Part shown: positions 1 to 14,671 of the stretch, one piece after another | Layout: each line of letters begins with the position of its first letter | How positions within the stretch are numbered: the first letter of the stretch is position 1 | Origin: a virus | Lineage: Duplodnaviria > Caudoviricetes | Virus record (IMG/VR): IMGVR_UViG_3300044476_000078 | Coordinates: 1-26,192 of that record | Strand: one strand, 5' to 3' | DNA length: 26,192 nucleotides | Translations under genes and position numbers: made by a program | The notes under the pieces: model-generated | The model's database searches: none | Seen by the model: only the letters and a program-made list of their open reading frames with translations | Told to the model about the DNA's origin: nothing

Positions 1-787
1 GTACAGCGGTCTTATTGGCTACGCACCCAATCTCGAGAAGCTTCTCTGGCTTGTCAGTAGTGGCATCTGGTGTTGGAGATGGATTTAAACCCCATATCTG
101 ATCTCTCCCTACGAATACAATGCCTTGATCTCGCAACCCGATAGCCGCTCGCTCTGGACCTATGGGCATACGAAATGCGTTTGAAACTGTATCAAAAGCT
201 GATGAGTAATCTGCTGGGTATACGTCAGAGTAATATGCGTTGTTATCTTTAACAACCCACCAGCGGTTCCTATAATACACGCCGACGGTTGATCTTGGGG
301 GGCTGTCTGATCCAGTTCCAGCCGTGTTTCCGAGATCCTGTGGCGACGAGTAGTTATCAGGTTCGAAGCGATGCCAGTTGTCCGTTCCGTTACCTACGAC
401 AAATACATCACCCTCTCCGCTTTCCTCAACTTTAATGATCGCAGTCTGAAGATTATTCGTGAAATTTGTCTTGCGCTCTGTGAACGTTCCGGTAGCCGGC
501 CACGTTTCTAGTTTCTGTCCGTGAGTAACAACAAGCACGTTAGTTCCGCCAGATGGCTCAAATCCTAACATCCCGGTACCGGAAGAATTCCCCAGATCTT
601 CAATCAAAGTGATACCGCGATCCTTTTTTATTTCTCCGGCAATCGAAACATCGTAATTTGTTATTTCTTCGCACTGAGTTTCACCGACCTGTCGAGGCGA
701 CTGACGTGTGTTTACTCCTCCAGAGAAATTACCCCTGCGAACCTCAAGCTGCTGATCGTCAGATCCAGAAAACCTATACGGTGTCAT
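1..787 (-). CDS. Tail nozzle / tail tubular protein B-like (T7 gp12 / P22 gp10 type), truncated by the window edge
   Basis: Not in the ORF track. Manual translation from ATG 787: MTPYRFSGSDDQQLEVRRGNFSGGVNTRQSPRQVGETQCEEITNYDVSIAGEIKKDRG..., open to position 1. The N-terminal FSGGxN...G-x-I-K-K-x-x-G pattern, beta-rich body and position after the adaptor gene fit a podovirus nozzle. Confidence 0.7.
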   Translation of the reverse strand, partial: MTPYRFSGSDDQQLEVRRGNFSGGVNTRQSPRQVGETQCEEITNYDVSIAGEIKKDRGITLIEDLGNSSGTGMLGFEPSGGTNVLVVTHGQKLETWPATGTFTERKTNFTNNLQTAIIKVEESGEGDVFVVGNGTDNWHRFEPDNYSSPQDLGNTAGTGSDSPPRSTVGVYYRNRWWVVKDNNAYYSDVYPADYSSAFDTVSNAFRMPIGPERAAIGLRDQGIVFVGRDQIWGLNPSPTPDATTDKPEKLLEIGCVANKTAV

Positions 788-1466
788 AACTTGTATCCCC
801 CGTTAAGCGAGTAACTCCGGGAAGCTGATAGGTTTGGCTTATTCTCTGGTGAAGCTGATTGAACTGTGATTTCTCCTGACCAATACGCTTCGCAACCTCA
901 GACTCATACCTCTGAAAAAAATAATCAGCCTTCTGGTACTGCTTCTTATATGCCAGTGCTTCAGCGGTAGCGCCAAGCTCAAGCATGTACTCAATATCTT
1001 TGATGACAGCTGTATCTGTATTCCCGGAAAGATCCGTGACCGATTTCTGGTAAGGTAACGCAATCGTCTTATTTGATGTCGGTTTAGGATCAAATTTTAT
1101 CTTCGAGCTCTCTCTTAAAATAACGTACCGACGAGGATTTCCGCCCTGAGGGAGAGATGCTCCTGAGTAACTGCTTCCTCTTAGCCTCCACCAGCCTCCC
1201 TCGTTATATCTCTGAAGAATTTCTCCGTCAGTTATATTCGCCACGAATACTTCTCGGTCAAAATCCGAAGGGAGATCGTACTCAGCGGCGGAACTCGTGA
1301 TTGGAATTGTATAGTTATCATCGATGAGAGCAGACCACACGCAGCGCCTTGCGATATCGCGATATTTATCGTTGATCCACACTCCAATTAGCGTAGCAAA
1401 CATCGTAGAGGTATCCTGAACGAAACTGCCGACGTTTGTTTTCATCTGTGAAAATGTCTTTGCCAT
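774..1466 (-). CDS. Head-tail adaptor / tail tubular protein A-like (T7 gp11 / P22 gp4 type)
   Basis: 230 aa. Contains WINDKYRDI, EYDLPSDF and FDPKP segments and a helical C-terminus, as in podovirus adaptor proteins; lies directly before the nozzle-like gene. SD AGGAG upstream. Confidence 0.7.
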   Translation of the reverse strand: MAKTFSQMKTNVGSFVQDTSTMFATLIGVWINDKYRDIARRCVWSALIDDNYTIPITSSAAEYDLPSDFDREVFVANITDGEILQRYNEGGWWRLRGSSYSGASLPQGGNPRRYVILRESSKIKFDPKPTSNKTIALPYQKSVTDLSGNTDTAVIKDIEYMLELGATAEALAYKKQYQKADYFFQRYESEVAKRIGQEKSQFNQLHQRISQTYQLPGVTRLTGDTSYDTV

Positions 1467-1474
1467 GAGAACTC

Positions 1475-1912
1475 CTATAGTGAAACCGTATAGCGAGCAA
1501 GCTCTTCGAACACGTCGCGTCTCCAGAACAGTACCCGTTGTGGAAGATACTTATTTAAGCATCCCCACACAACACATAATACGATGGATCTGGCGATTAC
1601 GACCCACCATAATGCAATATCTATGAACATGATAGGGAACAGCGCAACACCAACCATCGCACCGGAAAACCACAGGTTATCGTACTTGAAGATCTTGTCC
1701 CAGTACGTCGAGAAAGCGGCCCAGTGCAATCCAAATACCAAGAGATATACCCAAGTGAAATGAAAGTCGAAACCGAACAAAATGCAGAACGCTACAACCA
1801 CGATGAGGGAGCAACCGACGTCTCGGTATTTTGTGTCAAATCCCTGAGCTCCTCCGAGACGTCCGCAGACTCCAGAAATGATCGCCAGAACAAGTATCGC
1901 AAGAATTGTCAT
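1475..1912 (-). CDS. Multi-pass membrane protein of unknown function
   Basis: 145 aa with about 4-5 hydrophobic segments; start overlaps the stop of the upstream ORF (ATGA). Confidence 0.7.
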   Translation of the reverse strand: MTILAILVLAIISGVCGRLGGAQGFDTKYRDVGCSLIVVVAFCILFGFDFHFTWVYLLVFGLHWAAFSTYWDKIFKYDNLWFSGAMVGVALFPIMFIDIALWWVVIARSIVLCVVWGCLNKYLPQRVLFWRRDVFEELARYTVSL

Positions 1913-2130
1913 CGAGCCCTCGTCACAATGTATTCACCGACAGCGCCACAAACACCGTCGTAATTTGGAACATTCTCAACGTCCTTAGAGACGGTCCAAA
2001 CCTTCGATGGCTCAACTGGTTCGTCTTTCCTTGGATTCGAGCTCTTGCAACTTGTCAGCAAGCTTAACATAACGACAAGCATCAAAAGGCTTGGATTTCT
2101 GAACACTGAGCATCTCCTTTTTAATTTCAT
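1909..2130 (-). CDS. Putative lipoprotein, o-spanin (Rz1)-like
   Basis: MKLKRR-hydrophobic stretch-LLTSC lipobox, short mature part, 5' half overlaps the neighbouring gene in another frame; its stop is coupled to the next start. Confidence 0.5.
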   Translation of the reverse strand: MKLKRRCSVFRNPSLLMLVVMLSLLTSCKSSNPRKDEPVEPSKVWTVSKDVENVPNYDGVCGAVGEYIVTRAR

Positions 2131-2215
2131 CGATCTTGTTCTGGTAATACTCGCGCTTCTGGGGGATCCAGTTGGCTATCTTACCGATTAAGGTTCCAAT
2201 GCCATCCCATCCCAT
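2012..2215 (-). CDS. Small coiled-coil protein with amphipathic N-terminus (possible i-spanin/Rz analogue)
   Basis: Start revised to ATG 2215 (MGWDGIGTLIGKIANW...), 1 nt after the upstream stop, GAGG SD; 67 aa. Confidence 0.5.
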   Translation of the reverse strand: MGWDGIGTLIGKIANWIPQKREYYQNKIDEIKKEMLSVQKSKPFDACRYVKLADKLQELESKERRTS

Positions 2216-2216
2216 G

Positions 2217-2387
2217 TTACGCCTCTTTCGACAGGCTGATACCTGTATAGGCCGCAACAGCCATCGTAACGAGCCCAATAGCTCCAACAGCCATCTTGCC
2301 AAACTCCGGCCACACCAGAATGCTTGCGCCTAAAGCGCCGTTGATAGCTCCACCGATAAGGATCGCTGCAATCTTACTTTTTTTCAT
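2217..2387 (-). CDS. Small two-TM holin-like membrane protein
   Basis: Start revised to ATG 2387 with AAGGAGG SD; MKKSKIAAILIGGAINGALGASILVWPEFGKMAVGAIGLVTMAVAAYTGISLSKEA (56 aa). Confidence 0.55.
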   Translation of the reverse strand: MKKSKIAAILIGGAINGALGASILVWPEFGKMAVGAIGLVTMAVAAYTGISLSKEA

Positions 2388-2547
2388 CCGTTCCTCCTTG
2401 GTTACGATCATTTCGACTGAAATAGAGCGTGAAAATCATGATCAGGATATCTTTGGGATCCAGCTTGCCTGTAACCGACATCCACGCAAACACCATGGCG
2501 CCGGTTACCGTTAGGACGTAGCGTCCGCTGAGAAGTTTCTGAATCAT
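2374..2547 (-). CDS. Small two-TM holin-like membrane protein (not in the ORF track)
   Basis: MIQKLLSGRYVLTVTGAMVFAWMSVTGKLDPKDILIMIFTLYFSRNDRNQGGTDEKK (57 aa); TGATG overlap with the upstream stop; hydrophobic core ending in YF followed by a charged tail. Confidence 0.6.
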   Translation of the reverse strand: MIQKLLSGRYVLTVTGAMVFAWMSVTGKLDPKDILIMIFTLYFSRNDRNQGGTDEKK

Positions 2548-2729
2548 CACGATCTCCCTGTTACCCTGTTGTGTCTCGCCTGAAGACGCTTCTCAAGCCT
2601 TTCGGCCGCGCTGTACGCGATCATGCTAAACCCATGGTCCATTCCGTGACGAAGCTCTTTCAGGATCTCAAGATCCTTAATGCTCTCGTCATGGCATGCC
2701 TGTAGCTGGGGGCAGTTTTCACAGCACAT
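2547..2729 (-). CDS. Small hypothetical protein with Cys-rich N-terminus
   Basis: Start revised to ATG 2729 (TAATG overlap): MCCENCPQLQACHDES..., 60 aa; coupled to neighbours at both ends. Confidence 0.55.
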   Translation of the reverse strand: MCCENCPQLQACHDESIKDLEILKELRHGMDHGFSMIAYSAAERLEKRLQARHNRVTGRS

Positions 2730-3133
2730 TAATGAACCATCCGACCTTCCATCTGCGTTTCCCATCGTTTCGTATTAATATCAACCTGTTTGGCGATTCC
2801 TCCGATCCACACAAGTCCGCAAATAATCGATACCGTTAATGAAAAAATCCCGGCGATCATTCCGCCGAGAATCCATATTTTGACGTCTCGCATAGATGTC
2901 TCTTGGTTTTTCTCAATGTTCGCAATTGCAGCATTAATCTCTTTGATGTCTAACTTAATGTCTCTGATGTCTTGCATTACAACCTCATTCGCTTTCTCTA
3001 ACGTCAATATCTGGTGCGCCTGTGTGTCACTGCGAGAGCGATACGTCATGCTTTCATCAATATGTTTCTCCACTTTCTTTGCGATGTTGCATTGAAATTC
3101 CTCGCACTCTGGTAATCGTTCGGTGTGTGTCAT
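2729..3133 (-). CDS. Coiled-coil protein with one C-terminal TM segment (XhlA-like architecture)
   Basis: 134 aa; heptad region followed by IWILGGMIAGIFSLTVSIICGLVWIGGI; heads the small membrane gene cluster. Confidence 0.55.
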   Translation of the reverse strand: MTHTERLPECEEFQCNIAKKVEKHIDESMTYRSRSDTQAHQILTLEKANEVVMQDIRDIKLDIKEINAAIANIEKNQETSMRDVKIWILGGMIAGIFSLTVSIICGLVWIGGIAKQVDINTKRWETQMEGRMVH

Positions 3134-3151: not shown

Positions 3152-3295
3152 TTACTTCGTGCGTAACCCCTTAAACTTCGCTCCGTTGCTCTTGAGTTGC
3201 CATTGACTCTCAAATGCTCCAATATCGGTGATCCCCACACGAGGATTGCCGTCATAGTCTGTGGACACTTCGGGTAAATAGGTTCCGGCGTTGAT
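3152..3295 (-). repeat. Copy 1 of a 47-codon C-terminal module shared with 5283-5426
   Basis: 40 of 47 residues identical between the two beta-helix proteins by manual alignment. Confidence 0.9.
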
Positions 3296-4522
3296 GGCGG
3301 GGCTGGATTGTTGAAGGTGGAAATCTGCCGAGCCTGTGAATTTTGGATCAGCAAAGACAGCGTTAGTTAGATATCCCAATCCCGTCCATTCTGCTTTTGT
3401 GTGATTGACTACCCCAGCGTCGTAAGTCTGAAAGTTTGATGCAGTTGATAAATATAGATTATTTGACTCCGTAAATACGGTCGCTGGATTGTTCAGGAAG
3501 ACTTCTGACTGGCTTGCGGTCGCGGAAAAAATATTATTATTCGCCTCAACCATTTGCGCTGAATCAGCAGTAAAGCCAACTTTCAAATTATAAAGAGTTG
3601 ATCCGGTCGATGTGTTGTTATAAAATTTTTGGAGTATGCTCGCAGAAGAAGAATGCGAATTAAAATTCTGCCCCGCGTTGTTCGAGGCAATATTGTCATA
3701 AACTATATTTGATTCATTACCTCCGGCTGTGATGCCACTACCCTCGCCATTGACAACTAAGTTTCGGAAAATCCTTCCATTGGTCGTCGAGGTAAAGCTG
3801 TTTTGCATATCAATTCCACTACCGCCACTCCCTAACGTGCTGTAAATGTAATTATCATGTACGATTGGCCCATAACATCCATCATCAACCCCGATAGCGT
3901 CGAAGTTTCCAGTTCCACTTGTTCCATTATTTCCAAGAGTTAAATGTGCAATTTCAATACCTGGGGAATTAAAAGCCTGTAATCCGCCATGAACGCAATT
4001 TATATACGTCCCGCCGTAGATAATTCCATCAGTTGAAATGTATCTTAAACAAGTTGACCCTCCGCCAGCACCGTTAATGCTGACGTTAAATAGTCTAACC
4101 TTCGTTGTTGGCGTTAGGTCCGTACCATTGGAACCAACCGTCAAGACCCTTGAAGATGAATTGCTACTTAGTGAGATGTCTTTCAGGTCGATATATTTTC
4201 TTGTTGCAATCGGTGTTATGGGGGGATTGGAGTTAGAAATTGATCCTGCATCACCAGAACAACCGCCAGAAACGGTAAGTTGATTTATAAGCGTACCGTC
4301 TGCCCCTATGGTCAGGACTTCCGTTGTGTGCGCCCCACAGATATAGAGTGTGTCGTCCGCAGATATTGATGCCCAGTTGATATTGGTGAACCCATCCCAA
4401 GCGTTAGCGTAACTTGTACCATTTTCAGACCCATAACTACCGCCCGACGGACGAACGTACCATGTGGCTCCCATTAAAAACGGGATAGATAACAAAACAA
4501 TTAGTTTGATTGGATTTGCCAT
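3152..4522 (-). CDS. Right-handed parallel beta-helix protein with signal peptide and choice-of-anchor-Q-like C-terminus
   Basis: 456 aa. Signal-like MANPIKLIVLLSIPFLMGA then TWYVRP; Asn/Gly-rich PbH1-type repeats (IVHDNYIY, IFRNLVV, VYDNIAS, FYNNTS); DFHLQQSSPAINAG...DYDGNPR...DIGAFE. Confidence 0.8.
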   Translation of the reverse strand: MANPIKLIVLLSIPFLMGATWYVRPSGGSYGSENGTSYANAWDGFTNINWASISADDTLYICGAHTTEVLTIGADGTLINQLTVSGGCSGDAGSISNSNPPITPIATRKYIDLKDISLSSNSSSRVLTVGSNGTDLTPTTKVRLFNVSINGAGGGSTCLRYISTDGIIYGGTYINCVHGGLQAFNSPGIEIAHLTLGNNGTSGTGNFDAIGVDDGCYGPIVHDNYIYSTLGSGGSGIDMQNSFTSTTNGRIFRNLVVNGEGSGITAGGNESNIVYDNIASNNAGQNFNSHSSSASILQKFYNNTSTGSTLYNLKVGFTADSAQMVEANNNIFSATASQSEVFLNNPATVFTESNNLYLSTASNFQTYDAGVVNHTKAEWTGLGYLTNAVFADPKFTGSADFHLQQSSPAINAGTYLPEVSTDYDGNPRVGITDIGAFESQWQLKSNGAKFKGLRTK

Positions 4523-5286
4523 ACTGGACCATTCGTTAAGGTTCCGTTTACTCCGCCGATTGAGTCTGTAAGAACCGTTCCGCTTCCTTCGTTAAAATAA
4601 TAATCTGCGGTACATGGGATTGGTGACGCTTGGTTTTGTATAAATTGTCCGCCGTTGTATAGCGTAGTGACGTTAGCTTGAGTTAAGGCTGTTCCGGCGT
4701 AAATAGTTAATCTTCGGAATAAACCGTCCCACGTTCTAGTCGCACCGGAAAAGTTCCCGATTATAAAAGCTCTTGCTGGACTTGAATCATTGACTATCGC
4801 TCCCACGCCTGCTGTATCAGTAGCAAGAGCTTGAAGGGTTCCGTCGATGTAAATTTTACCCTTATTGTCGCCATCCTCATTAAACACGAAAACGCAATGA
4901 TGCCAAACGCCGTATGTAAAATTGGCATCGTTCATAATGGCTTGCATATCCGTGTCCATATCAAGAAAGAATTTCAGCTTGTTAGCGGTGTTGATAGTTG
5001 CCTGAAACATCGTTTTGTCAAAGATTCTCCCATTAACCGATCCAGCGCTTCGTGCCAGTACCCACGCCGCAACGGAGAATTTCGTTTGACCATAAACCTG
5101 ATTGGATGCGTTGTTGGCAATGGTTACATACCCACCGCTTGCCGCCGCCCCATCAAAACTCAGCGCATTAAACCCACTCCTCACCGTCATGTTCCGAAGT
5201 ACGCCAGAGCCAAAGACGTGCCTTGCCTCACTCGCATCAGAAGTCACCGCGATAAACAAAAATAGAATAGATAATAGGTATCTCAT
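4501..5286 (-). CDS. LamG / concanavalin A-like lectin-fold protein with signal peptide
   Basis: 261 aa. ALSFDG, FSVAAWV, WHHCVFVF, KIYIDG, FIIGN, WDGLFRRLTIY and YYFNEGSG...NGTLTNGPVW are Laminin_G_3-type motifs; N-terminal MRYLLSILFLFIAVTSDA. Confidence 0.85.
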   Translation of the reverse strand: MRYLLSILFLFIAVTSDASEARHVFGSGVLRNMTVRSGFNALSFDGAAASGGYVTIANNASNQVYGQTKFSVAAWVLARSAGSVNGRIFDKTMFQATINTANKLKFFLDMDTDMQAIMNDANFTYGVWHHCVFVFNEDGDNKGKIYIDGTLQALATDTAGVGAIVNDSSPARAFIIGNFSGATRTWDGLFRRLTIYAGTALTQANVTTLYNGGQFIQNQASPIPCTADYYFNEGSGTVLTDSIGGVNGTLTNGPVWQIQSN

Positions 5287-5426
5287 TTCGTGCGAAGTCC
5301 TTTCAGTTTGGCCCCGTTACTTTTGATCTGCCATTGAGATTCAAATGCGCCGATGTCCGTTATGCCAATACGAGGGTTGCCGTCGTAATCGTTCGTGACT
5401 TCCGGCAGATTGACGCCAGCGTTGAT
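5283..5426 (-). repeat. Copy 2 of the 47-codon C-terminal module
   Basis: INAGVNLPEVTNDYDGNPRIGITDIGAFESQWQIKSNGAKLKGLRTK versus INAGTYLPEVSTDYDGNPRVGITDIGAFESQWQLKSNGAKFKGLRTK. Confidence 0.9.
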
Positions 5427-7103
5427 AGTCGGTGATAATTGAGTCGGGCGGAGATTGTAAATTGCCTGGTCGGTAAATACTGGATCAGAAGTTATGGAAT
5501 GAGCGTCTTGCCCTAACGCCTGCCACCCCGCGAAAGTCTTTGTGGCTCCGAGGTAGGTTCCGAAGGTTGCGCCTACGGAATAATCGTTATAGTCGAAGGT
5601 CTGCTCAGGTGCATAAACCTGAAGCGCTTTTCCATTCGTTGTTTTTACGATATTGTTTTTCCAGACGTTTCCGGTATCGTTTGGACAATATGCGGAATTT
5701 CCAAGCCCTACAAATGCCGCATCAGCGTCAACATTTACCAAGATATTGTGATAAAATTTGTTATTCGTATTTCCGCAGTAGTTTTCTGATCCGGTATAAA
5801 TCCCAGATGCCGGAAAACCAATCAATTCATTGTTGAAAAGCGTATTTTGGTCACTATTGTTCGTTATTTTTATTCCAATACCCTGAAAGACTCTGCATTT
5901 CCTAGCATCATATTTGCTGTACCCGTTTGCACTTGCACAAGCTGGATATCCTGTGACATTGCTGCGATTGCTATAAACTGAATTATTGTTAGAAGTCCAG
6001 ACCTCAAGGAATTGGTTAGTGCAGTTGTTACCTGTGTTATGATGGAAGTACGAACGATCAACGCCAAAGTCAACTTCATAGCAAGAGCCGTTGCGTGTAT
6101 CGTGGACATAGTTCCCATACTCTTGCGCTCCGGTTATCGTATGTCCAATGTGTGTTCCTCCGCTCTCAGAATCATCGACGCCCGCATTCCCGCCGTCTAA
6201 AGAAAGACATGAAACGTCCGTCTGACCCTCTGTGCCGCTGTCGGTACAAGTGTTATTTCTTAATATAAAATTATCCCCACCCCCACGGAAGCAGTTTGAT
6301 CCACAGGTAGAAAAATCGTTGTCCTCAACGACGGAATTATCCGAAAGATAACCGCCGTAATATTCTCCCATTTCTAGGTTATACCCATTGTGTCCATAAA
6401 ACGAAAGACCATGTACCCACTTATAATCCCAATGGCTTGTTCCTCCCCATCCACCGATATCAATTCCTGTACTGATGGATGAATACTGCACCGTCTTACC
6501 ACTTGGGTCTGCAGAGTCTGATGTCCAGACATACAGCTTCTGTCCGGTCACATCATGCGTGTATGTCCCTGCCGTCATGTTTGCGGCGGTAGTGGCAATA
6601 TCGGTTTTCCAAACGATATACATCAGTCGTGAGCCGTCAACGGTAACGATCTTGCGCTGAGATGTGGATGTATTATCAGCAGAATAAATAGCTGTCGCTG
6701 CATATCTTGTCCATGGGCCAGCTTGCGTTGACATTCCGTTGATAATAGGTTTTGCAAGACCGCCGATGCCTCTGTCATACGACGATATTTCAGACAAGTC
6801 GCTTGCTGTTCCCGACCAATGGCTATTCATTGAGCAGTTAAGCGTTGTCCCGGCATAGATGTAAACATCAACGCCCAAGTCGGTATCACCAACGTAGCCC
6901 TTGATATTATTGACCGGAGTGCAGGATTTCCACGGCCCATTTGAGCCGGAAACGAAGCTCGGGGCCAGACCGTCCCAAGAGTCGTTACCGCCAACAGGAT
7001 CAACATATACTTTTGTTCCAGAGGATAGCGAGTGAGCATATCCGCAGGAAACAAAAATAATCATTACTGCAAGAAAGTATTTTAATTTGCGGCACATAGA
7101 CAC
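5283..7103 (-). CDS. Cys-rich right-handed parallel beta-helix protein with signal peptide and choice-of-anchor-Q-like C-terminus
   Basis: 606 aa (start 7103 or 7097). KLKYFLAVMIIFVSCGYAHS signal; VYVDPVGGNDSWDG...PWKS motif typical of beta-helix N-termini; same C-terminal module as 3152-4522. Confidence 0.8.
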   Translation of the reverse strand: MSMCRKLKYFLAVMIIFVSCGYAHSLSSGTKVYVDPVGGNDSWDGLAPSFVSGSNGPWKSCTPVNNIKGYVGDTDLGVDVYIYAGTTLNCSMNSHWSGTASDLSEISSYDRGIGGLAKPIINGMSTQAGPWTRYAATAIYSADNTSTSQRKIVTVDGSRLMYIVWKTDIATTAANMTAGTYTHDVTGQKLYVWTSDSADPSGKTVQYSSISTGIDIGGWGGTSHWDYKWVHGLSFYGHNGYNLEMGEYYGGYLSDNSVVEDNDFSTCGSNCFRGGGDNFILRNNTCTDSGTEGQTDVSCLSLDGGNAGVDDSESGGTHIGHTITGAQEYGNYVHDTRNGSCYEVDFGVDRSYFHHNTGNNCTNQFLEVWTSNNNSVYSNRSNVTGYPACASANGYSKYDARKCRVFQGIGIKITNNSDQNTLFNNELIGFPASGIYTGSENYCGNTNNKFYHNILVNVDADAAFVGLGNSAYCPNDTGNVWKNNIVKTTNGKALQVYAPEQTFDYNDYSVGATFGTYLGATKTFAGWQALGQDAHSITSDPVFTDQAIYNLRPTQLSPTINAGVNLPEVTNDYDGNPRIGITDIGAFESQWQIKSNGAKLKGLRTK

Positions 7104-8083
7104 TTATCAGCCGTAGCAGAATCACACTTTACCGCAACTTCACCGCTTGCCGTGTCCCATCCAAGCACACATCCTCTGACACACGTTGTTGTACACGCCG
7201 TATTAGCTGCACTTTTAATACCCCATCCCAATGTTGTCCCACCACCATAAAGTGAACCGTCAGCATAGATATTTCCGTCTGCCTCTATGTCAGTTCCGAC
7301 TAATAATCCATTCCCCGTCGAAGATGTTCGTGATGCCGTCGCAATCTGAAGTTTTGCATTAGAGGCATTTGTACCAATGGAAACATTTCCGAAATTATTG
7401 GTGGCTGGTGAAGCAAGCACAAGCGTTGTTCCGGCTCCATTGCTGTCAATAGTTAAGCGGTTAGAGCTATCCAGATAGATACTTCCCGTTCCAGCGGCTC
7501 CCGATGAATACAGTTTTATACCGCCCGAACTAGTAGTGCCATTAGAGCGAACGATAAGCGGGGCCGTTCCGTTAATTGGAGTACCGATTCCCACATTGTT
7601 GACGTACAGCATTCCATCAATCTGAGCGTTGTTCTTAACTAGAAAATCAATGTTTCCAGACCCACCTGTAACCGTCCCACCCCCCACATCCAACAGCGCA
7701 CTCGGCTGCTGTGTGCCAAGTCCGGTGTTGCCCGAGCCTTGAGCGTAGATTGCGCCGTCAACCCGTAGCTTCGTTGCGCCGGGAACTGTACCAGCAATGT
7801 AAATCGACTGGTCGGCAAAGTCGTTGCCGTCAATTTTCACCGTGACGCCCGGAGCGCTGTCGAACTCAATTTCTTCCTGACTTCCAGTTCCGATCGCATT
7901 ATCAAAATAGATATCACCGGATACGGTGAGATCGCCGTTAATGGTCTGAGCGCCGGAGAATGATGCTTTCAGAGGATTGGTTGTCGTTCCAACTTCAACC
8001 CCACTTCCATCCTGCAATACAACACGATCTGCGGCATAGGCAGCTGAGCAGAGCAGCATTAATATAACGAAAACTTTTCTCAT
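7082..8083 (-). CDS. Fibre-like protein with signal peptide, NVGIGT-type repeats and six-Cys tip
   Basis: Start revised to ATG 8083 (AAGGAG SD): MRKVFVILMLLCSAAYA|ADRV..., 333 aa; repeats GNTGLGT, NNVGIGT, GNVSIGT; C-terminal CTTTCVRGC...C...CLC. Confidence 0.75.
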   Translation of the reverse strand: MRKVFVILMLLCSAAYAADRVVLQDGSGVEVGTTTNPLKASFSGAQTINGDLTVSGDIYFDNAIGTGSQEEIEFDSAPGVTVKIDGNDFADQSIYIAGTVPGATKLRVDGAIYAQGSGNTGLGTQQPSALLDVGGGTVTGGSGNIDFLVKNNAQIDGMLYVNNVGIGTPINGTAPLIVRSNGTTSSGGIKLYSSGAAGTGSIYLDSSNRLTIDSNGAGTTLVLASPATNNFGNVSIGTNASNAKLQIATASRTSSTGNGLLVGTDIEADGNIYADGSLYGGGTTLGWGIKSAANTACTTTCVRGCVLGWDTASGEVAVKCDSATADKCLCAAN

Positions 8084-8084
8084 C

Positions 8085-8228
8085 TTAGACTCCTTGAATG
8101 TAAAGTGGATTTGTGGTTGTCCCAAGCTCTTCTCCGCTGCCGCTCTGCAAGACTGCTCTTGTAGCTGCCCAAGCGATCCCTCCGCCGAGGATAAGACCGA
8201 TAATAAAACCAATAAATAAATTTTTCAT
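8085..8228 (-). CDS. 47-aa signal-peptide mini-protein paralogous to the N-terminus of the downstream fibre (not in the ORF track)
   Basis: AGGAGG SD; MKNLFIGFIIGLILGGGIAWA|ATRAVLQSGSGEELGTTTNPLYIQGV; fills the intergenic gap almost exactly. Confidence 0.85.
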   Translation of the reverse strand: MKNLFIGFIIGLILGGGIAWAATRAVLQSGSGEELGTTTNPLYIQGV

Positions 8229-8236
8229 GCGTCCTC

Positions 8237-9334
8237 CTAATTTGTAACGAGATATCCATCAAAGGCTGATGCAGCCTCTATGTCATTTGCACTAGCGATT
8301 CCAAGAGTCTTTATGATGCAAGGCCCGGCGTACTTAACGTAATTTGCGAACACCTTATCCTGTGAAGATGTCCCTGTCGTGATCAGCTCCATATCATTTT
8401 TCAATAAGAAACCTGTCGTCTGGATGTGTGGGCTTTCGTTAACCCTTAATTCGAACCCAACAGACTGAGTGGTCGCTGACTTTCCGATGGAGCATGACCA
8501 CCGTGTCATATAAAATGTATGTGTGCTTGGCACACCGTAAATCGCCATCTCGGTCTGCCCCTCGAGCACTCCGATAACTGCCGTGATCGTGGAATTAACG
8601 TCTGCCGTCGCGGAGATAACTCCGACGTTCGGACCGGACGCGCCCATCGTAAGAACCTTCATACGATGAATGATCACATACGAATTTACCGTCGGAACGC
8701 TTGTAGTTCCATTTAAAACAATGTCTTCAGAAGATTCGGCGGTATCCCAAGTTTTTAATCCATAAATTCTTATCGTCCTTGCGCCAACAGAATTTGGAGC
8801 TGCTGTCTTTCCATCTAAATCTGATGTAGATGCAATCTGATGAATTCGAGGAGCGGTTGGAGCAAGCCATACAGGTTGCGTAGCCGCCGCATCCGAGCGA
8901 CTCCAGATATCGGTTGGCGTTGTCTGCACTCCAGAAGGGGCATGGCCGAATTTATTTACCACGCTGATCCCGGGGACGTTGCCTCTAGATGCCTCAAGAC
9001 AGAAGTTCGATGAGGCAATCATCGACGGGATGGACGGTATTCTTCCAGAAGGAAGTGTGTACGATAGAGATTCTCTATTTGTCCACGCGAGCAAATAACC
9101 GGAGGTGTCGCTAGTAAACCTTGTCGATCCGGTACTCATGTCAACTTTGACAATCGAATACGACCCGGACGAATCAATAAATCCGTAATAATTAGGAGAA
9201 GACAGATCTACGTCGACCAGAACAAAACCCTGCTGATCGACGTAGAGTCCTCCGTTTAAAGAAACCTGTGCTTGCAGTTGCTCGTTAAGCACCGCTCCCT
9301 TGTTGTGACCTATAATGCGTACAGGCTCAGCCAT
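8237..9334 (-). CDS. Putative virion structural protein, beta-rich, two domains
   Basis: Start revised to ATG 9334 (MAEPVRIIGH, 365 aa). Motifs AWTNRESLSY and SRGNVPG..VNKFG...GARTIRIYGL...LNGTTSV resemble, from memory, uncharacterised phage structural proteins. Confidence 0.6.
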   Translation of the reverse strand: MAEPVRIIGHNKGAVLNEQLQAQVSLNGGLYVDQQGFVLVDVDLSSPNYYGFIDSSGSYSIVKVDMSTGSTRFTSDTSGYLLAWTNRESLSYTLPSGRIPSIPSMIASSNFCLEASRGNVPGISVVNKFGHAPSGVQTTPTDIWSRSDAAATQPVWLAPTAPRIHQIASTSDLDGKTAAPNSVGARTIRIYGLKTWDTAESSEDIVLNGTTSVPTVNSYVIIHRMKVLTMGASGPNVGVISATADVNSTITAVIGVLEGQTEMAIYGVPSTHTFYMTRWSCSIGKSATTQSVGFELRVNESPHIQTTGFLLKNDMELITTGTSSQDKVFANYVKYAGPCIIKTLGIASANDIEAASAFDGYLVTN

Positions 9335-9335
9335 G

Positions 9336-9758
9336 TTATGCCGTCTTAATAGTGGCCCATGTCCAACGATACGGCTTCCCGGGATACTCAAAAGTGATCG
9401 ACGTGACGTTATCAACGCCAGTGCCATCAGCATCGGCAAGCGTCATCGACACGATCTTAACCTCTTCGTATGCGTCATCGTTGATTGAAACCCAGATCGA
9501 ACCTGCATTGATATTTGCAGCCCCATCTGTACCGCTCGCAAAAAACGTAAATGCAGGATCCATGCGAATCTTAAGAACGTTGCCATCAGCCAGCGCCATG
9601 CTGTTATTGACTCCAGCGCCGTAGTAAAGACCGCCATCACCTTTATCATCGAACGTAAGCGCGAAGTCCTGAGTCGTTCCAGAAATCGTTGTAGACGTTC
9701 CGTCGGAATAAACCCACGGTGAGTTTGCAGTGTCGACTGTCCATGTATGTGTTGCCAT
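9336..9758 (-). CDS. Small acidic beta-rich protein, probably structural
   Basis: 140 aa, AAGGAG SD, Thr/Asp/Gly-rich, in the late operon. Confidence 0.6.
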   Translation of the reverse strand: MATHTWTVDTANSPWVYSDGTSTTISGTTQDFALTFDDKGDGGLYYGAGVNNSMALADGNVLKIRMDPAFTFFASGTDGAANINAGSIWVSINDDAYEEVKIVSMTLADADGTGVDNVTSITFEYPGKPYRWTWATIKTA

Positions 9759-9770
9759 TGTAATCTCCTT

Positions 9771-10568
9771 TTAGAAGTAGTTTTTCTGAGCCACTAAGTG
9801 GATATCGTACCAACTTGAGTATCTTGAGCTGAAGTTCCGACGACAAACGATAACTTTAAATCCTACCCTCTCGACCTCGCGCTTGAGAGCTTCCTCGGTC
9901 CACATGACGTAGTGCTCCTCAGTCTTGAAATGCGGAAACCCGGGAACGCCGGTCTTATGCATGAAGCTTATGTCAGGCGTGCCAATGTACAGAACGCCTG
10001 TCTCCGATAGAAGGTTGTACGCCTTTCGCAGCGCCGCCATCGGATCGTTGAAATGCTCGAACGAGTGATTCATCCATATCAAATCAAATTTTCGCTCGAA
10101 CTTGTCAGCGCCGGCAATAGCCTTGAGCTCATCGGTATTCGCCGGGATGTCAAAATCAAATGTCGTGAAATCTCCGCGATACAGGTTTCCTTTTCCTCCG
10201 GTGTCCTTGTTGACATCGATGCCCCATGTAATCCATCCACGATTCTCAAAGAACTTCATGTTGTGCGGAACGCAGTAACCGACATCGAGCATCTGCCGGC
10301 CGTAGGTAGCCTCCTCGATCACGTTCGCGTATGTGTGAGCGGCATGCGTAAGGCGCAGATCGGCTTCTTTCATGCCAGCATAATTCACGACATACTTCTC
10401 GTCGTAGTTACTGGCAACCGGGAGATTCTCCTGAAACATCACTCCGCACTGGCAGCGATACCACGTCGCTTCTTTCTTAATAAGCGATTCGTGGATCCGG
10501 TAAACATACGCCGTCGCGATTCCGCAAATTGGACAAGACTTCGGATACACCAAGCATTCTTCTGACAT
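9771..10568 (-). CDS. Class I SAM-dependent methyltransferase with N-terminal Zn-ribbon (Methyltransf_23-like), copy 2
   Basis: Start likely 10568 (TAATG overlap). CPIC...CQC; motif I LDVGYC; GIDVN; FDLIWMNHSFEHFNDP; GVLYIGTPD. Confidence 0.85.
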   Translation of the reverse strand: MSEECLVYPKSCPICGIATAYVYRIHESLIKKEATWYRCQCGVMFQENLPVASNYDEKYVVNYAGMKEADLRLTHAAHTYANVIEEATYGRQMLDVGYCVPHNMKFFENRGWITWGIDVNKDTGGKGNLYRGDFTTFDFDIPANTDELKAIAGADKFERKFDLIWMNHSFEHFNDPMAALRKAYNLLSETGVLYIGTPDISFMHKTGVPGFPHFKTEEHYVMWTEEALKREVERVGFKVIVCRRNFSSRYSSWYDIHLVAQKNYF

Positions 10569-11530
10569 TACGACTCCTTGACCTTGCAAATTTGTTTGTA
10601 CAGTCTTTCAGGTGAGATCCCTTGAGCCATGCACCACGCAGCTCTCGTCACAACGTCGACGGGACACTGCACATCGTGGTCATAGATCAGGTGAAAGCAA
10701 GGAGCGCAAGCACAGTCGGCTTCAAGTGAAAAATCGTTCAGAAAATATTTGGTGATGTTCTCTTTATTGGTATGTCCCAAGAGGCCGATTTTAGGCGTAC
10801 TGAAACACCCAGAGGCATGGAGGACACCAGTATCAGGACTCACCACCAGATCGACGAGGTTCGTTAGAACCATCGAAATCCTCATAGATACTTCCCCAGA
10901 CAGGTTCGTGATCCTCTCGTCCATGACTGTCTCGAGCAGTTGAGACTTCAAATCTCCAACTGTAATAATATGTGCGTCTTCGTAATCCTTTAAGATCTGT
11001 CCGATAACATACTCTGTCCATGGGTACACCTTGTTCTTTCCAGAGCCGGAAAGCGCCCAGAGGATATTATATTTTCCCGGCTTAATGTACTTCTTGGCCT
11101 CGGCTTCTTCCTCCGGTGTATAATGGAACTCCGGGCGCTTAACACATCCAGAAAGCTTTGCCCATTCCTCCGTTACATCGTAGTAGTTGCGATTGCACCG
11201 AGCAAAACGCTCAGGCTTAGGATAAATATATTCGGGATTGATCGGATGAAGCGCAACGTTGCATTCAATCGACTCGCTAAAATTAATAACTCTCTCGGCG
11301 TTGACTTCAGCGATGATCTTTTCCCAGTGCTTTGGAAGATCGTCAATCGGAACGCTGTCATCATGCATGATCCACTCGTCGATGTTTGGATTATGCTCGA
11401 GCGCCTCCCTGCCGCGCTTGTTGGTGTTGAGGACAACGTGGTATCCCTCTTCCTTAAGCTTCTTTAAGGCTGGCGTTATGTTGAGCATGTCGCCATAAGC
11501 CCCGTACCTGATGATTAAACACTTACGCAT
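10568..11530 (-). CDS. Glycosyltransferase family 9 (ADP-heptose heptosyltransferase-like), copy 2
   Basis: IIRYGAYGD, LEHNPNID, VVSPDTGVLHAS, CAPC...CP...CM..ISPERL: WaaF/RfaF-type GT9 motifs. Confidence 0.9.
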   Translation of the reverse strand: MRKCLIIRYGAYGDMLNITPALKKLKEEGYHVVLNTNKRGREALEHNPNIDEWIMHDDSVPIDDLPKHWEKIIAEVNAERVINFSESIECNVALHPINPEYIYPKPERFARCNRNYYDVTEEWAKLSGCVKRPEFHYTPEEEAEAKKYIKPGKYNILWALSGSGKNKVYPWTEYVIGQILKDYEDAHIITVGDLKSQLLETVMDERITNLSGEVSMRISMVLTNLVDLVVSPDTGVLHASGCFSTPKIGLLGHTNKENITKYFLNDFSLEADCACAPCFHLIYDHDVQCPVDVVTRAAWCMAQGISPERLYKQICKVKES

Positions 11531-12335
11531 TTGTCACCTTCTGAAAAAGTAAATGGTAGTCTCCCCAACATGTGAACTTCGGCGTATCGTTGCGCTTGCT
11601 AAACACGCATTTATAACCGAGCTCTTCGAGTGCCTCGATGAAGCTCTCCATGTCCCATAGAATGTGATGCTCGCGTAAGTGCCAATGGACCCAAGTATGC
11701 GGTCTGGTCCAATCAATGAACCAAGGATCCGGCATGGCCACAAAAAGTAATCCAGAATCGTTAAGTGCGGCCTTGAGATTCTTGGCCACCTTAAGCGGAT
11801 CCTTGAAGTGCTCAAAAATATGTGAAGCAAAAATCACGTCGAAAGTATCAGTCATTGCCCGTCCGTAATCTCCGTTTAAACCGGATTCGACGTCCCAGAT
11901 CATGATCTCATGCTTATCAGATTTCGCATTTGGGTTGATATCAATCCCCGTCGTCTTCCATCCCATCTCCTTGGCTTCGTCAAGAAGAGCGGTGTTGATC
12001 GCTCCAATCTCTGCAAAGCTTTCGATGGCCTTATGCTCGATCATGAGTGGGAAGTATTCGCTGTATCGACGGATCGCTTCGGTAGATTCTTTGGTCTGAT
12101 ACTTATCGTGATAGCCCTCATCGTACACGCGACTATCCATGTTCGACCAGTCAGTGAAGAATATATTCCTACAGTTGCAGAACGAATATCCACGATCCAG
12201 AACAGGAAGAAACATTCTTTCCTTCTCAGGATTCCTGACTATTCCCTGAATGAAGATCGGATGCTCTGTTCCGCACAGAGGACAGATCTGCGCCATCTTC
12301 TTCGGATACTTAAGGAGGTCAACCCCACACTGCAT
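11523..12335 (-). CDS. Class I SAM-dependent methyltransferase with N-terminal Zn-ribbon, copy 1
   Basis: CPLC...FCNC; AEIGA; GIDIN; FDVIFASHIFEHFKDP; GLLFVAMPD; paralogous to 9771-10568. Confidence 0.85.
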   Translation of the reverse strand: MQCGVDLLKYPKKMAQICPLCGTEHPIFIQGIVRNPEKERMFLPVLDRGYSFCNCRNIFFTDWSNMDSRVYDEGYHDKYQTKESTEAIRRYSEYFPLMIEHKAIESFAEIGAINTALLDEAKEMGWKTTGIDINPNAKSDKHEIMIWDVESGLNGDYGRAMTDTFDVIFASHIFEHFKDPLKVAKNLKAALNDSGLLFVAMPDPWFIDWTRPHTWVHWHLREHHILWDMESFIEALEELGYKCVFSKRNDTPKFTCWGDYHLLFQKVTNA

Positions 12336-13302
12336 ACGCTTTTCTCACCTGTTCAATAACTGTGTCGACATCGAACCAAACGCAAAGCGGATACCCATCT
12401 TTACGGGGACATCCGATAAATTTGTATTGTGCCTTCGTGCAAGGAGAGCACCGTGCCGGGCTCTGCAAGCTAAAATCATTTTTACATCCGTTAGGATGAT
12501 TGATGAGAGATGCCGCTGTCATCATTTGCACCGTCGGAGTTTCCCACATGTTCGCAGCAACTCCGAATCCGCTCTCCATCGATACGACAACACGCGCATA
12601 CTTAGCCATCAGAACAACCTGTCTGAATGGCATGATCTTCTTCAAAAATTTTATCCTGTCGCTTTCAGGAATATTCAGATTGTCCGAGTTTCTGTCTCCG
12701 GTAAGTAGCAGCTCGGAGTCTGGGAACTCGACGAGCAATCTTGCGATAAGCTCAGGAGCAAACGCCATACGCTTGTTGAGCGTGGTCCCGTTTAAATTCA
12801 CGATTATCGGATTCTTCCGACGAGACATATACTCACGAGCAATGCGTTCTTCCTCGTCGGTGTAATAAACTTCTCCTCGATACTGTCCGACCAGCTCAGG
12901 ATACCCGGCAACGATTGTGCTCTGATCGTAGTAATTCGTCTCGGCGTATTTCTGGCGATTCCTCGGATGCATGTAGTACACATTCGACGTCTCGCTTGCG
13001 ATCAGAGCTCCCTCAAGAGATTCGTACAGGTTCACGAACTTGTCGTATCCCTGACTGATGATCTCCCAATGCTTGTTAAGCATGAAAGGATCTTTGTAGA
13101 GCTCTATGTAATTGGTGGGCTCAAAGTAGAACAGGTTGTCGATGTGCGGATTATAAGAGAGAAGCTGTGATCCCTTGTAATTCGTTTCCACGTCGACGAT
13201 ATCGTATCCCTGATCCTTTAAAAGATGAGGGAGATGACTCATATGAATTATGTCACCGTAAGCGCCATACCGACTTATCAATGCCTTCTTCATCGGAGCC
13301 AT
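12319..13302 (-). CDS. Glycosyltransferase family 9 (heptosyltransferase-like), copy 1
   Basis: ISRYGAYGD, LSYNPHID, VVSMESGFGVAA, CSPC...CP...C; paralogous to 10568-11530 (shared SLEG/SIEC, NYYD and NDFSL segments). Confidence 0.9.
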   Translation of the reverse strand: MAPMKKALISRYGAYGDIIHMSHLPHLLKDQGYDIVDVETNYKGSQLLSYNPHIDNLFYFEPTNYIELYKDPFMLNKHWEIISQGYDKFVNLYESLEGALIASETSNVYYMHPRNRQKYAETNYYDQSTIVAGYPELVGQYRGEVYYTDEEERIAREYMSRRKNPIIVNLNGTTLNKRMAFAPELIARLLVEFPDSELLLTGDRNSDNLNIPESDRIKFLKKIMPFRQVVLMAKYARVVVSMESGFGVAANMWETPTVQMMTAASLINHPNGCKNDFSLQSPARCSPCTKAQYKFIGCPRKDGYPLCVWFDVDTVIEQVRKAYAVWG

Positions 13303-13741: not shown

Positions 13742-14671
13742 TTAAGCAGACGTTAAGTGAATGATACGAGTTTCCGCATCCGTGCTGAAATCCCAAGTCT
13801 GCACGAATCCGCCGAGGTAATACCAAGCAATCGCCTGATCACGCCCGAAATCCTTGGGCAGATCAATACGAATGTCTTCAGGAATGACGATCCCTTCGCG
13901 GACAGCGTCATCACCGAAGAACACAGCTTCGCCGTACTGCGTACCAGTACCGAGCGCGTTGCTGAGGATGTTCGTCTCTTCGACGAAGCGGCAACCATAA
14001 TAGTTACCGACTTCACCACTGAACATCGGCTTCGCAGTCGTCTGCATGATCTTCGCTTCGAAGAAATCATACAAACCGCGAATGCTGTTCGTGGAGGCGA
14101 TACAGATGTAGCTATCGCCATCGTACCGAGGAACGTTCAGGATCTTCAGCTTATCGACGACATCGCGAACGTTCTTGTCGGACATATTGCCAGTGGCAGT
14201 GGCCGTAGCCGTGCCATTGGTTGTGAACGTGGTGACAGCGGTACTGGCCACGACGGCCTTGTACACGCTGGTCTTGAACGCAAGCGCAGCCTGTGAATCA
14301 AGAACCTTAGCCATGTCATTGCGAAGAACAGTCTTCACAATGTCCGGCACCGCGACTTCAGCGAGGGTCTGCGCCTTCAGCGTGAACGGAATGGCATTGC
14401 CATATTCCGCCACCGAGAGCGTACCCTGCTTGATCGTATAATTGACCTTCGGGATGGTCGATGTCTCTGTCAAAACGCCGCCCGACGTGGAAATGTTGCT
14501 GATCTTGTTGAACAGCACGGCATCACCACGACCTTTACCAGCAGCAGCTTCCGGCGTAACGAACTGACGGAACTTCATCATCGGCTGAGCCGCATGACGA
14601 AGCTGCTTGGAGAGGACGTCGTTTGAAAGAAAACCACCCAAAGAATTGACAGCCCAAAGTTGCTGAGCCAT
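13742..14671 (-). CDS. Major capsid protein (HK97 fold, N4-gp56-like family)
   Basis: 309 aa after the scaffold gene; GKGRGDAVLF, LTET, EYGNAI, GEVGNYYGCRFVEET, DFGRDQAIAWY motifs. Confidence 0.9.
   Translation of the reverse strand: MAQQLWAVNSLGGFLSNDVLSKQLRHAAQPMMKFRQFVTPEAAAGKGRGDAVLFNKISNISTSGGVLTETSTIPKVNYTIKQGTLSVAEYGNAIPFTLKAQTLAEVAVPDIVKTVLRNDMAKVLDSQAALAFKTSVYKAVVASTAVTTFTTNGTATATATGNMSDKNVRDVVDKLKILNVPRYDGDSYICIASTNSIRGLYDFFEAKIMQTTAKPMFSGEVGNYYGCRFVEETNILSNALGTGTQYGEAVFFGDDAVREGIVIPEDIRIDLPKDFGRDQAIAWYYLGGFVQTWDFSTDAETRIIHLTSA

Follow-up and report, generated by a model that had tools for sequence, protein, structure and literature searches.

The window analysed here is the whole of a 26-kb record (26,192 nt) of an uncultured sediment phage (IMG/VR record IMGVR_UViG_3300044476_000078), whose gene layout is podovirus-like. 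We analyzed a cassette of five consecutive open reading frames (ORFs), all on the minus strand, whose predicted products each begin with a leader resembling a Sec signal peptide. The five ORFs, with the score of their leader and the number of cysteines (Cys) in the mature part, are as follows:

8228-8085 (-), mini-protein of 47 amino acids (aa); leader score 6.1, 0 mature Cys
8083-7082 (-), 333-aa fibre-like protein; leader score 6.5, 6 mature Cys
7097-5283 (-), 604-aa predicted beta-helix protein, with an alternative GTG start at 7103; leader score 6.1, 12 mature Cys
5286-4501 (-), 261-aa LamG protein; leader score 5.7, 2 mature Cys
4522-3152 (-), 456-aa predicted beta-helix protein; leader score 5.5, 5 mature Cys

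The junctions between these genes consist, in order, of a 1-nt gap, a 16-nt overlap, a 4-nt ATGA overlap and a 22-nt overlap. The initial annotation had described five consecutive signal-peptide proteins, two of them rich in Cys, encoded on one strand by abutting or overlapping genes, and this description holds. Leaders were called with our own rule set, which looks for a basic n-region, an uncharged h-region and small residues at positions -3 and -1. All five ORFs were scored as carrying Sec/SPI-type leaders, and none of their products contains a later transmembrane segment, a lipobox or a recognised sorting tail. The same scorer called none of 1,420 internal windows of these five proteins and 10 of the 884 genes of a background set, composed of 47 loci found via the capsid protein; four of these ten calls fall on genes that themselves occupy virion positions and look fibre- or lectin-like (L014 twice, L032 and L033). 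The chance of a five-gene run is about 6e-9 if genes are independent, which operon neighbours are not. All core genes for head and tail in this window have a score of zero, with no leader on the capsid, portal, terminase or adaptor proteins. The mature domain starts at the cleavage site in the mini-protein, the fibre and the 456-aa protein, and the mature ends proposed earlier (ADRVVLQ, ATRAVLQ and TWYVRP) are the ends predicted by the scorer; the cleavage sites of the LamG and 604-aa proteins are uncertain by 2-3 residues.

The fibre comprises a 17-aa leader, a hook motif (aa 18-44, about 8032-7952), Gly-rich G-x-G-T repeats and a C-terminal six-Cys tip (about 7261-7085). The mini-protein, whose gene has a strong ribosome-binding site, comprises a 21-aa leader and a 26-aa mature peptide consisting solely of the hook; mature mini-protein and mature fibre thus open with the same 27-residue motif. 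No other cluster was found for the mini-protein among proteins of 25-83 aa. In 10 further relatives among database proteins, the first residue of the hook falls between +1 and +5 relative to the cleavage site called by the scorer, and in an 11th the hook follows a leader-like stretch that the scorer missed. At locus L026, two leaderless genes located in the same slot, after a methyltransferase gene, start with the hook motif: their residue 2 aligns with residue 18 of the fibre and residue 22 of the mini-protein (BLAST E 8e-9, 4e-4 and 2e-5). The fibre has 306 relatives at E<=0.001, and a leader is present in 115 of the best 150. The sequences of these 115 leaders vary, but their n-h-c pattern and register are kept. 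The export claimed in the initial annotation is therefore supported by the leaders of the fibre relatives and by leaderless homologues that start exactly at the cleavage site, and the five products are very probably exported.

Most fibre relatives share the C-terminal module with six conserved Cys. This tip was found in 30 viral loci, versus 4 contigs among 185,579 genomes, the latter being searched with one pattern rather than two; three of these four contigs are phage-like. One agrees with the viral locus L065 in length and range, and capsid genes are present on two. Of the 30 distinct locus proteins with the tip, counting that of the window, 26 have a leader; among the remaining four, two are fusions in which a leader-like segment is internal, one has a miscalled start and one lies near a contig start. 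Among database proteins the association holds for 94 of 121, several of the other 27 being fragments or hydrophobic starts missed by the scorer. An even and invariant set of Cys that is nearly always exported would fit a disulfide-bonded tip.

The tip module is often encoded among head genes. At locus L063, the gene order is portal, protease, scaffold, a gene combining a leader, a phrog_1731 domain, a fibre and the tip, and then the capsid gene. The phrog_1731 domain starts at the cleavage site, presents a weak match to the PF09956 cement family (E 0.002, below cut-off) and is homologous to a leaderless "virion structural protein" encoded between the protease and capsid genes of Rhodobacter phage RC1. 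When this domain was modelled (pLDDT 70), capsid decoration chains and the base of the phi29 head fibre ranked first. Head fibres and cement proteins (phi29 gp8.5, lambda gpD and the PF09956 family) are accessory parts added to the finished head, and to our knowledge the described members are cytoplasmic and leaderless. L063 resembles this class in its domain, which is placed behind a leader and before the same tip, whereas RC1 presents a leaderless cement-type domain in the same slot. The PF09956/phrog_1731 domain had no match in the five window proteins and was found only in the tip-sharing L063, L053 and, by alignment, L072; the 137-aa protein encoded after the window's capsid gene belongs to a family without resemblance to the cement profile. 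A cement domain would have no obvious use outside the cytoplasm unless it met the capsid later, and this is the strongest indirect argument for docking, drawn from the relative L063 and not from the window phage.

Other arrangements of these parts were observed. In L053 (7396-9759) and L072 (3844-6612), a single ORF located directly before the capsid gene encodes an S49 prohead protease joined to a scaffold, a leader-like segment in the interior, a cement-type domain, a fibre and the tip, which are separate genes in L063; the product would be a precursor that spans the membrane, its protease on the inner side and its head fibre on the outer side. In L065 (8696-10204) and L082 (2969-4687), the capsid gene is preceded by the gene of a fibre that has both a leader and the six-Cys tip, and this in turn by that of a leaderless extended cement protein, possibly a cytoplasmic socket and an exported plug.

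We further analyzed the surroundings of the cassette. On the minus strand the genes run from the small and large terminase through portal, scaffold and major capsid protein to the 137-aa protein, which is conserved. Next come two glycosyltransferase-like genes, which alternate with two methyltransferases, then the genes of the 140-aa and 365-aa proteins and the cassette itself. Seven small membrane/lysis-type ORFs and an adaptor follow, and the last gene, in the nozzle position, is cut by the end of the window. The main features are:

13742..14671 (-), leaderless major capsid protein of the N4-gp56 type (TIGR04387 above cut-off; phrog_1357)
9336..9758 (-), 140-aa leaderless protein, conserved in the phage family and marking the upstream edge of a variable slot
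8237..9334 (-), 365-aa leaderless protein opening the slot, with a family-wide N-terminal motif and a phrog_8198 domain
3156..3295, 140-nt repeat, 71% identical to 5287-5426, corresponding to the common 3' ends of the two beta-helix genes
1475..3133 (-), small membrane/lysis-type genes, including the overlapping pair 2215-2012 and 2130-1909
774..1466 (-), leaderless SU10-type head-tail adaptor (PF24175, 2e-14), at the downstream edge of the slot

The cassette had been placed between the capsid and tail genes. It does lie in the late operon, with the correction that the membrane/spanin-like cluster (3133-1475) separates it from the adaptor; the place where relatives have fibre-like genes, after the nozzle, is past the end of this window. 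The overlapping pair consists of a 67-aa and a 73-aa ORF, the second with a lipobox, and we take it to resemble an i-/o-spanin pair (Rz/Rz1 architecture), although searches of family libraries returned no family match for it; such a pair points to a host with two membranes, hence with a periplasm. Family searches recognised neither an endolysin nor a prohead protease in the window, which is a 26-kb fragment. Contigs of one sediment metagenome run, possibly the source sample, tile the region without differences and one of them bridges 7494-10753. A metagenome scan gave a single match, to a 1.8-kb contig, and searches of viral-contig loci with the fibre, the adaptor and the 140-aa protein as queries gave none. 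The fibre presented no sequence match in Pfam, PHROGs, NCBIfam or the PDB, and its structure-atlas matches were all below 0.9 and serve as leads only. Sequence searches of the PDB yielded no match worth naming for the 365-aa, 140-aa, 137-aa and 604-aa proteins, the tip or the hook, even though the hook is common to leaderless slot proteins, and no cement or anchor family was matched in the cassette. Cultured phages gave no match for the fibre, the tip, the LamG protein or the 604-aa protein.

The content of the slot varies between related phages. In G001, G003 and G005, no gene between the 140-aa gene and the membrane cluster has a leader, and in G001 and G005 these leaderless genes include fibre-like ones of 622-623 aa. 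G004 has two leader-bearing proteins in its slot, one of 257 aa and a LamG protein of 622 aa, together with a LamG protein of 399 aa that is leaderless, and the slot is empty or nearly so in L012, L032, L036 and L039. The phrog_8198 domain, which is leaderless in the 365-aa protein of the window, is preceded by a leader in 3 of 32 loci (39 were found, 7 near-duplicate or truncated ones were left out and one gene call was missed), and also in L068. In the tail-fibre position, after the adaptor or nozzle, a leader-bearing protein of L033 (7566-8051) has a leaderless twin in L034 (5314-5550): the two are 38% identical over 78 residues (E 5e-15) and residue 21 of the former aligns with residue 2 of the latter. 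When leader presence was mapped on a capsid-protein tree (23 sequences), three changes were required for the four phages with leaders, none of 200 bootstrap trees gives a single change, and the leader label is no more clustered than in shuffles (89 of 500 as low); this label pools two slots and some of the records labelled leaderless are fragments. Judging from these sequences, leaders are gained or dropped on otherwise homologous late proteins. All four longer records carry further leaderless fibre-like genes after the nozzle-position gene, so the cassette is probably accessory and the main tail fibre is probably encoded outside of it. A leader-bearing gene was also seen in the tail-fibre position, after the adaptor or nozzle, in L032 (11750-12424).

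The LamG protein was confirmed as such: it contains a LamG/ConA-like lectin domain (PF13385, 2e-19), matches phrog_8510, a "virion structural protein" (1e-9), and has one distant relative in range. The two beta-helix proteins share their last 84 aa (64%) and both match a choice-of-anchor Q segment, a domain of bacterial surface proteins. Their earlier identification as beta-helix proteins stands at the level of the family only: neither protein alone matches a beta-helix Pfam, whereas such matches are seen for 6 of 12 members of the family, whose profile also matches lyases/epimerases with solved beta-helix structures (the single-sequence model of the 456-aa protein had a pLDDT of 33 and was not used). 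The 31 homologues of the 456-aa protein comprise 16 leader-bearing, 4 borderline and 11 clearly leaderless proteins, the latter with 11-20 Cys. Through this right-handed beta-helix match, the two beta-helix proteins resemble tailspikes of the P22 gp9 type as well as PL6 lyases/mannuronan epimerases. Unlike the gp9 type, they end in choice-of-anchor Q and present a leader in place of the N-terminal head-binding domain, the conserved family start following directly after the leader. We also considered the C-terminal tail of the beta-helix proteins as a general docking tag, but a profile of 5 tails retrieved none of the non-seed proteins among 2,657 at E<1, and a looser tail pattern was found in 3 of 88 versus 19 of 1,545 proteins, two of the three coming from the window itself, which leaves this idea unsupported.

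Cultured phages of Cellulophaga baltica provide precedents. The products of gp091-094 in phi10:1 (KC821618) and of gp085-087 in phi18:3 (KC821620) present leaders (scores 5.4-6.2 and 4.9-6.1, respectively) and are noted in GenBank as structural proteins from tandem mass spectrometry (MS/MS). None of the 14 other MS/MS-flagged proteins that were scored has a leader (six of phi10:1 and eight of phi18:3; gp123 was left out). As in the window, these runs of 3-4 leader-bearing proteins are located just before membrane/lysis-type genes. Unlike in the window, the seven proteins contain 0-3 Cys and mostly expose Gln at +1, as expected from the rule for leader cleavage in Bacteroidota. The GenBank records are silent on leaders.

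Our results suggest that the five genes form an exchangeable accessory cassette whose products are exported and dock on particles at lysis, to which we assign a probability of roughly 0.6. Late in infection, the five leader-bearing products would pass through Sec into the host periplasm, where host signal peptidase I would cleave their leaders and the six-Cys tip of the fibre would close its disulfides. Holins and spanins would then merge the compartments at lysis, so that the exported parts could meet finished particles. The hook may serve as the arm by which the fibre and the mini-protein dock onto a leaderless partner, which could be the 365-aa protein, the 140-aa protein (a possible docking partner) or the head. 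Cement proteins and P22 tailspikes add to finished particles, and docking is proposed by analogy with them. The steps for which we have direct data are the leaders, the coupling of the operon, the register with leaderless homologues, the equivalence of the slot and the phage-specific exported tip. The two-compartment assembly put forward in the initial annotation is accordingly upheld for export, while the evidence for docking is indirect (slot synteny, an exported cement domain with the same tip, and unrelated precedents annotated from MS/MS). Docking is better supported for the fibre and the mini-protein than for the beta-helix and LamG proteins: the fibre is probably on the particle, and the chance that the beta-helix and LamG proteins are also there, rather than released free, is slightly below even. 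The likely job of the cassette is auxiliary adhesion to, and cutting of, host surface polysaccharide.

Parts of this proposal have counterparts in known systems. The MAT fibres of Bdellovibrio bacteriovorus are phage-like adhesive fibres that carry a signal peptide and V-G-x-G..P..L-type repeats and are folded outside the cytoplasm; they are encoded on the chromosome, sit on the cell surface, measure about 1,000 aa and have a conserved domain of 130 aa behind the leader, and 13 of 21 have an S74 chaperone, according to the accessible text of PMC10769870. The fibre of the window resembles them, as they are described there, in its leader and in three repeats of this type identified by eye, and differs from them in its length of 333 aa, its location in a phage late operon, its 27-aa hook, its six-Cys tip and its lack of PDB sequence matches. 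Late phage proteins are also exported through the host Sec pathway in the case of the endolysin Lys44 of fOg44 and of SAR endolysins, but these are lysis enzymes, unlike the particle parts proposed here, and the accessible sections of a review of tailed-phage envelope enzymes mention signal peptides only for endolysins (PMC6116005). Overall, the parts of the cassette are of familiar kinds, and we found no description of exported tailed-phage particle parts in the literature searched, which excluded most subscription papers and supplements.

Several observations weigh against docking of exported parts. The leader calls rest on a self-made, rule-based scorer rather than on SignalP, and the particle location and candidate docking partners of the cassette proteins are proposed from sequence. 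Leaders are not conserved among the closest phages, which mostly fill the slot with leaderless genes: the trait comes and goes. The beta-helix family includes cellular secreted proteins (P0158, on a 5.7-Mb contig, and P0168, with PKD domains), and the window's beta-helix proteins carry choice-of-anchor Q. An MS/MS note is missing for gp095, a leader-like pectate lyase of phi10:1 (score 4.8), the seven Cellulophaga proteins are not homologues of the window's five, and their MS/MS notes, which are GenBank record notes only, could stem from co-purifying envelope material. The fold match of the L063 domain does not reach E<=0.001 (best 1.1e-3, TM 0.33-0.56) and its Pfam score is below cut-off, and the fibre of the window, which has no cement domain, is linked to it through the shared tip only.

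The reason for export is a separate question. Oxidative folding, proposed in the initial annotation, fits the fibre tip but does not hold for the class, given the 11 leaderless beta-helix homologues with their many Cys and the Cys-poor Cellulophaga precedents. These leaderless Cys-rich homologues, together with an injection system built in the cytoplasm that contains a functional disulfide (as reported in the accessible text of PMC13314943), indicate that export is not needed for disulfides. Disulfides are at most part of the reason for export. Alternative, so far conjectural, motives are that export keeps sugar-binding and sugar-cutting proteins from the cytoplasm, or that it gives captured secreted domains access to host folding help. 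Glycosylation was rejected as a rationale: N-x-S/T motifs are not enriched in four of the five proteins (the LamG protein has 7 versus 3.3, P = 0.03, uncorrected) and D-S/T-x motifs are not enriched.

Alternatively, the five products might be exported and never reach the particle, residing in the envelope to block or remodel receptors, or going free at lysis, where lectins and enzymes that cut polysaccharide would open a path for the progeny. We consider this unlikely. The cellular secreted homologues and choice-of-anchor Q segments of the beta-helix proteins and the missing MS/MS note of gp095 would be readily explained in this way, as would the position of the cassette next to lysis-type genes, and leader-bearing genes of Porphyromonas gingivalis phages are read as envelope modifiers in the accessible text of PMC10367356. 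The cassette also differs in GC-content at third codon positions (GC3) from the head and glycosyltransferase genes (respectively, 0.43 and 0.58); however, the adaptor, nozzle, 365-aa and 140-aa genes together present a GC3 of 0.46, near that of the cassette. Moreover, the five proteins have no lipobox, later transmembrane segment or recognised sorting tail, and the cassette has no convincing promoter or terminator of its own (7 promoter-like sites versus 21 expected, none of them upstream of the cassette on its strand). Together with its overlapping gene starts and a GC3 that is low but similar to that of the tail genes, this gives the cassette a mixed resemblance to morons, which are cargo genes with independent expression. 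Proteins confined to the envelope or set free would leave unexplained why leaderless phage proteins begin with the mature hook, and why L063 exports a cement domain.

It is very improbable that the leaders are leftovers of captured cellular genes, with assembly in the cytoplasm and leaders ignored or trimmed by a phage protease. Cellular leader-bearing relatives do exist for the beta-helix proteins and for the middle repeats of the fibre, and prohead proteases have been suggested to remove the predicted leaders of some capsid proteins (PMC10367356, accessible text), but no such protease was recognised in the window, and the leaders of 115 of 150 relatives keep their n-h-c pattern and register while differing in sequence. 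Cellular sources of the six-Cys tip and the cement domain are absent or nearly so, and the Gln at +1 of most Cellulophaga leaders is what the host rule demands. Least probable is that particles cross or bud from the envelope, in a chronic or vesicle-linked mode of release, and acquire the exported proteins in doing so: the absence of a recognised endolysin, in a window that is only a 26-kb fragment, and the L053/L072 fusions, which would tether head assembly to the membrane, speak for it, but holin- and spanin-like genes follow the cassette and the core genes are all ordinary and leaderless.

Other features were observed along the way. Directly after the capsid gene, the window encodes two GT9-like glycosyltransferases and two methyltransferases (9771-13302), and similar blocks with more sugar enzymes are present in most related loci displayed; this block could serve particle glycosylation or the alteration of host lipopolysaccharide. 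Small leader-bearing proteins at 987-1397 of L133 (G003) and 14155-14523 of L058 look by eye like RlpA-type lytic transglycosylases and may be exported endolysins of related phages. At 2292-3883 of L048 (and near 9414-10825 of L023), the capsid gene is interrupted by an ORF whose start is LAGLIDADG-like, which suggests an intron; capsid matches begin late in L013, L027, L031 and L032 as well. The only capsid match in the genome collection was a 7.9-kb contig in a Woesearchaeota bin, which we take to be a probable mis-binning given the spanin-like pair with its lipobox.

The prevailing view is that the particles of tailed phages are built wholly in the cytoplasm and that Sec export serves some lysis and envelope proteins. 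We tentatively suggest, at slightly less than even odds, that many tailed phages may instead make two-compartment particles, on which exported fibres, lectins, beta-helix enzymes and even cement are hooked on at lysis, with all five cassette products being such parts and the leader being gained and lost gene by gene. The pairs with and without a leader (the window and L026, L033 and L034, L063 and RC1) constitute matched controls, and the claim is directly testable in the cultured Cellulophaga phages phi10:1 and phi18:3. If true, the export, disulfide and modification systems of the host would shape phage host range, the timing of lysis would become a step of assembly, and leader-bearing genes that are now dismissed as cargo or host contamination would be candidates for receptor binding.

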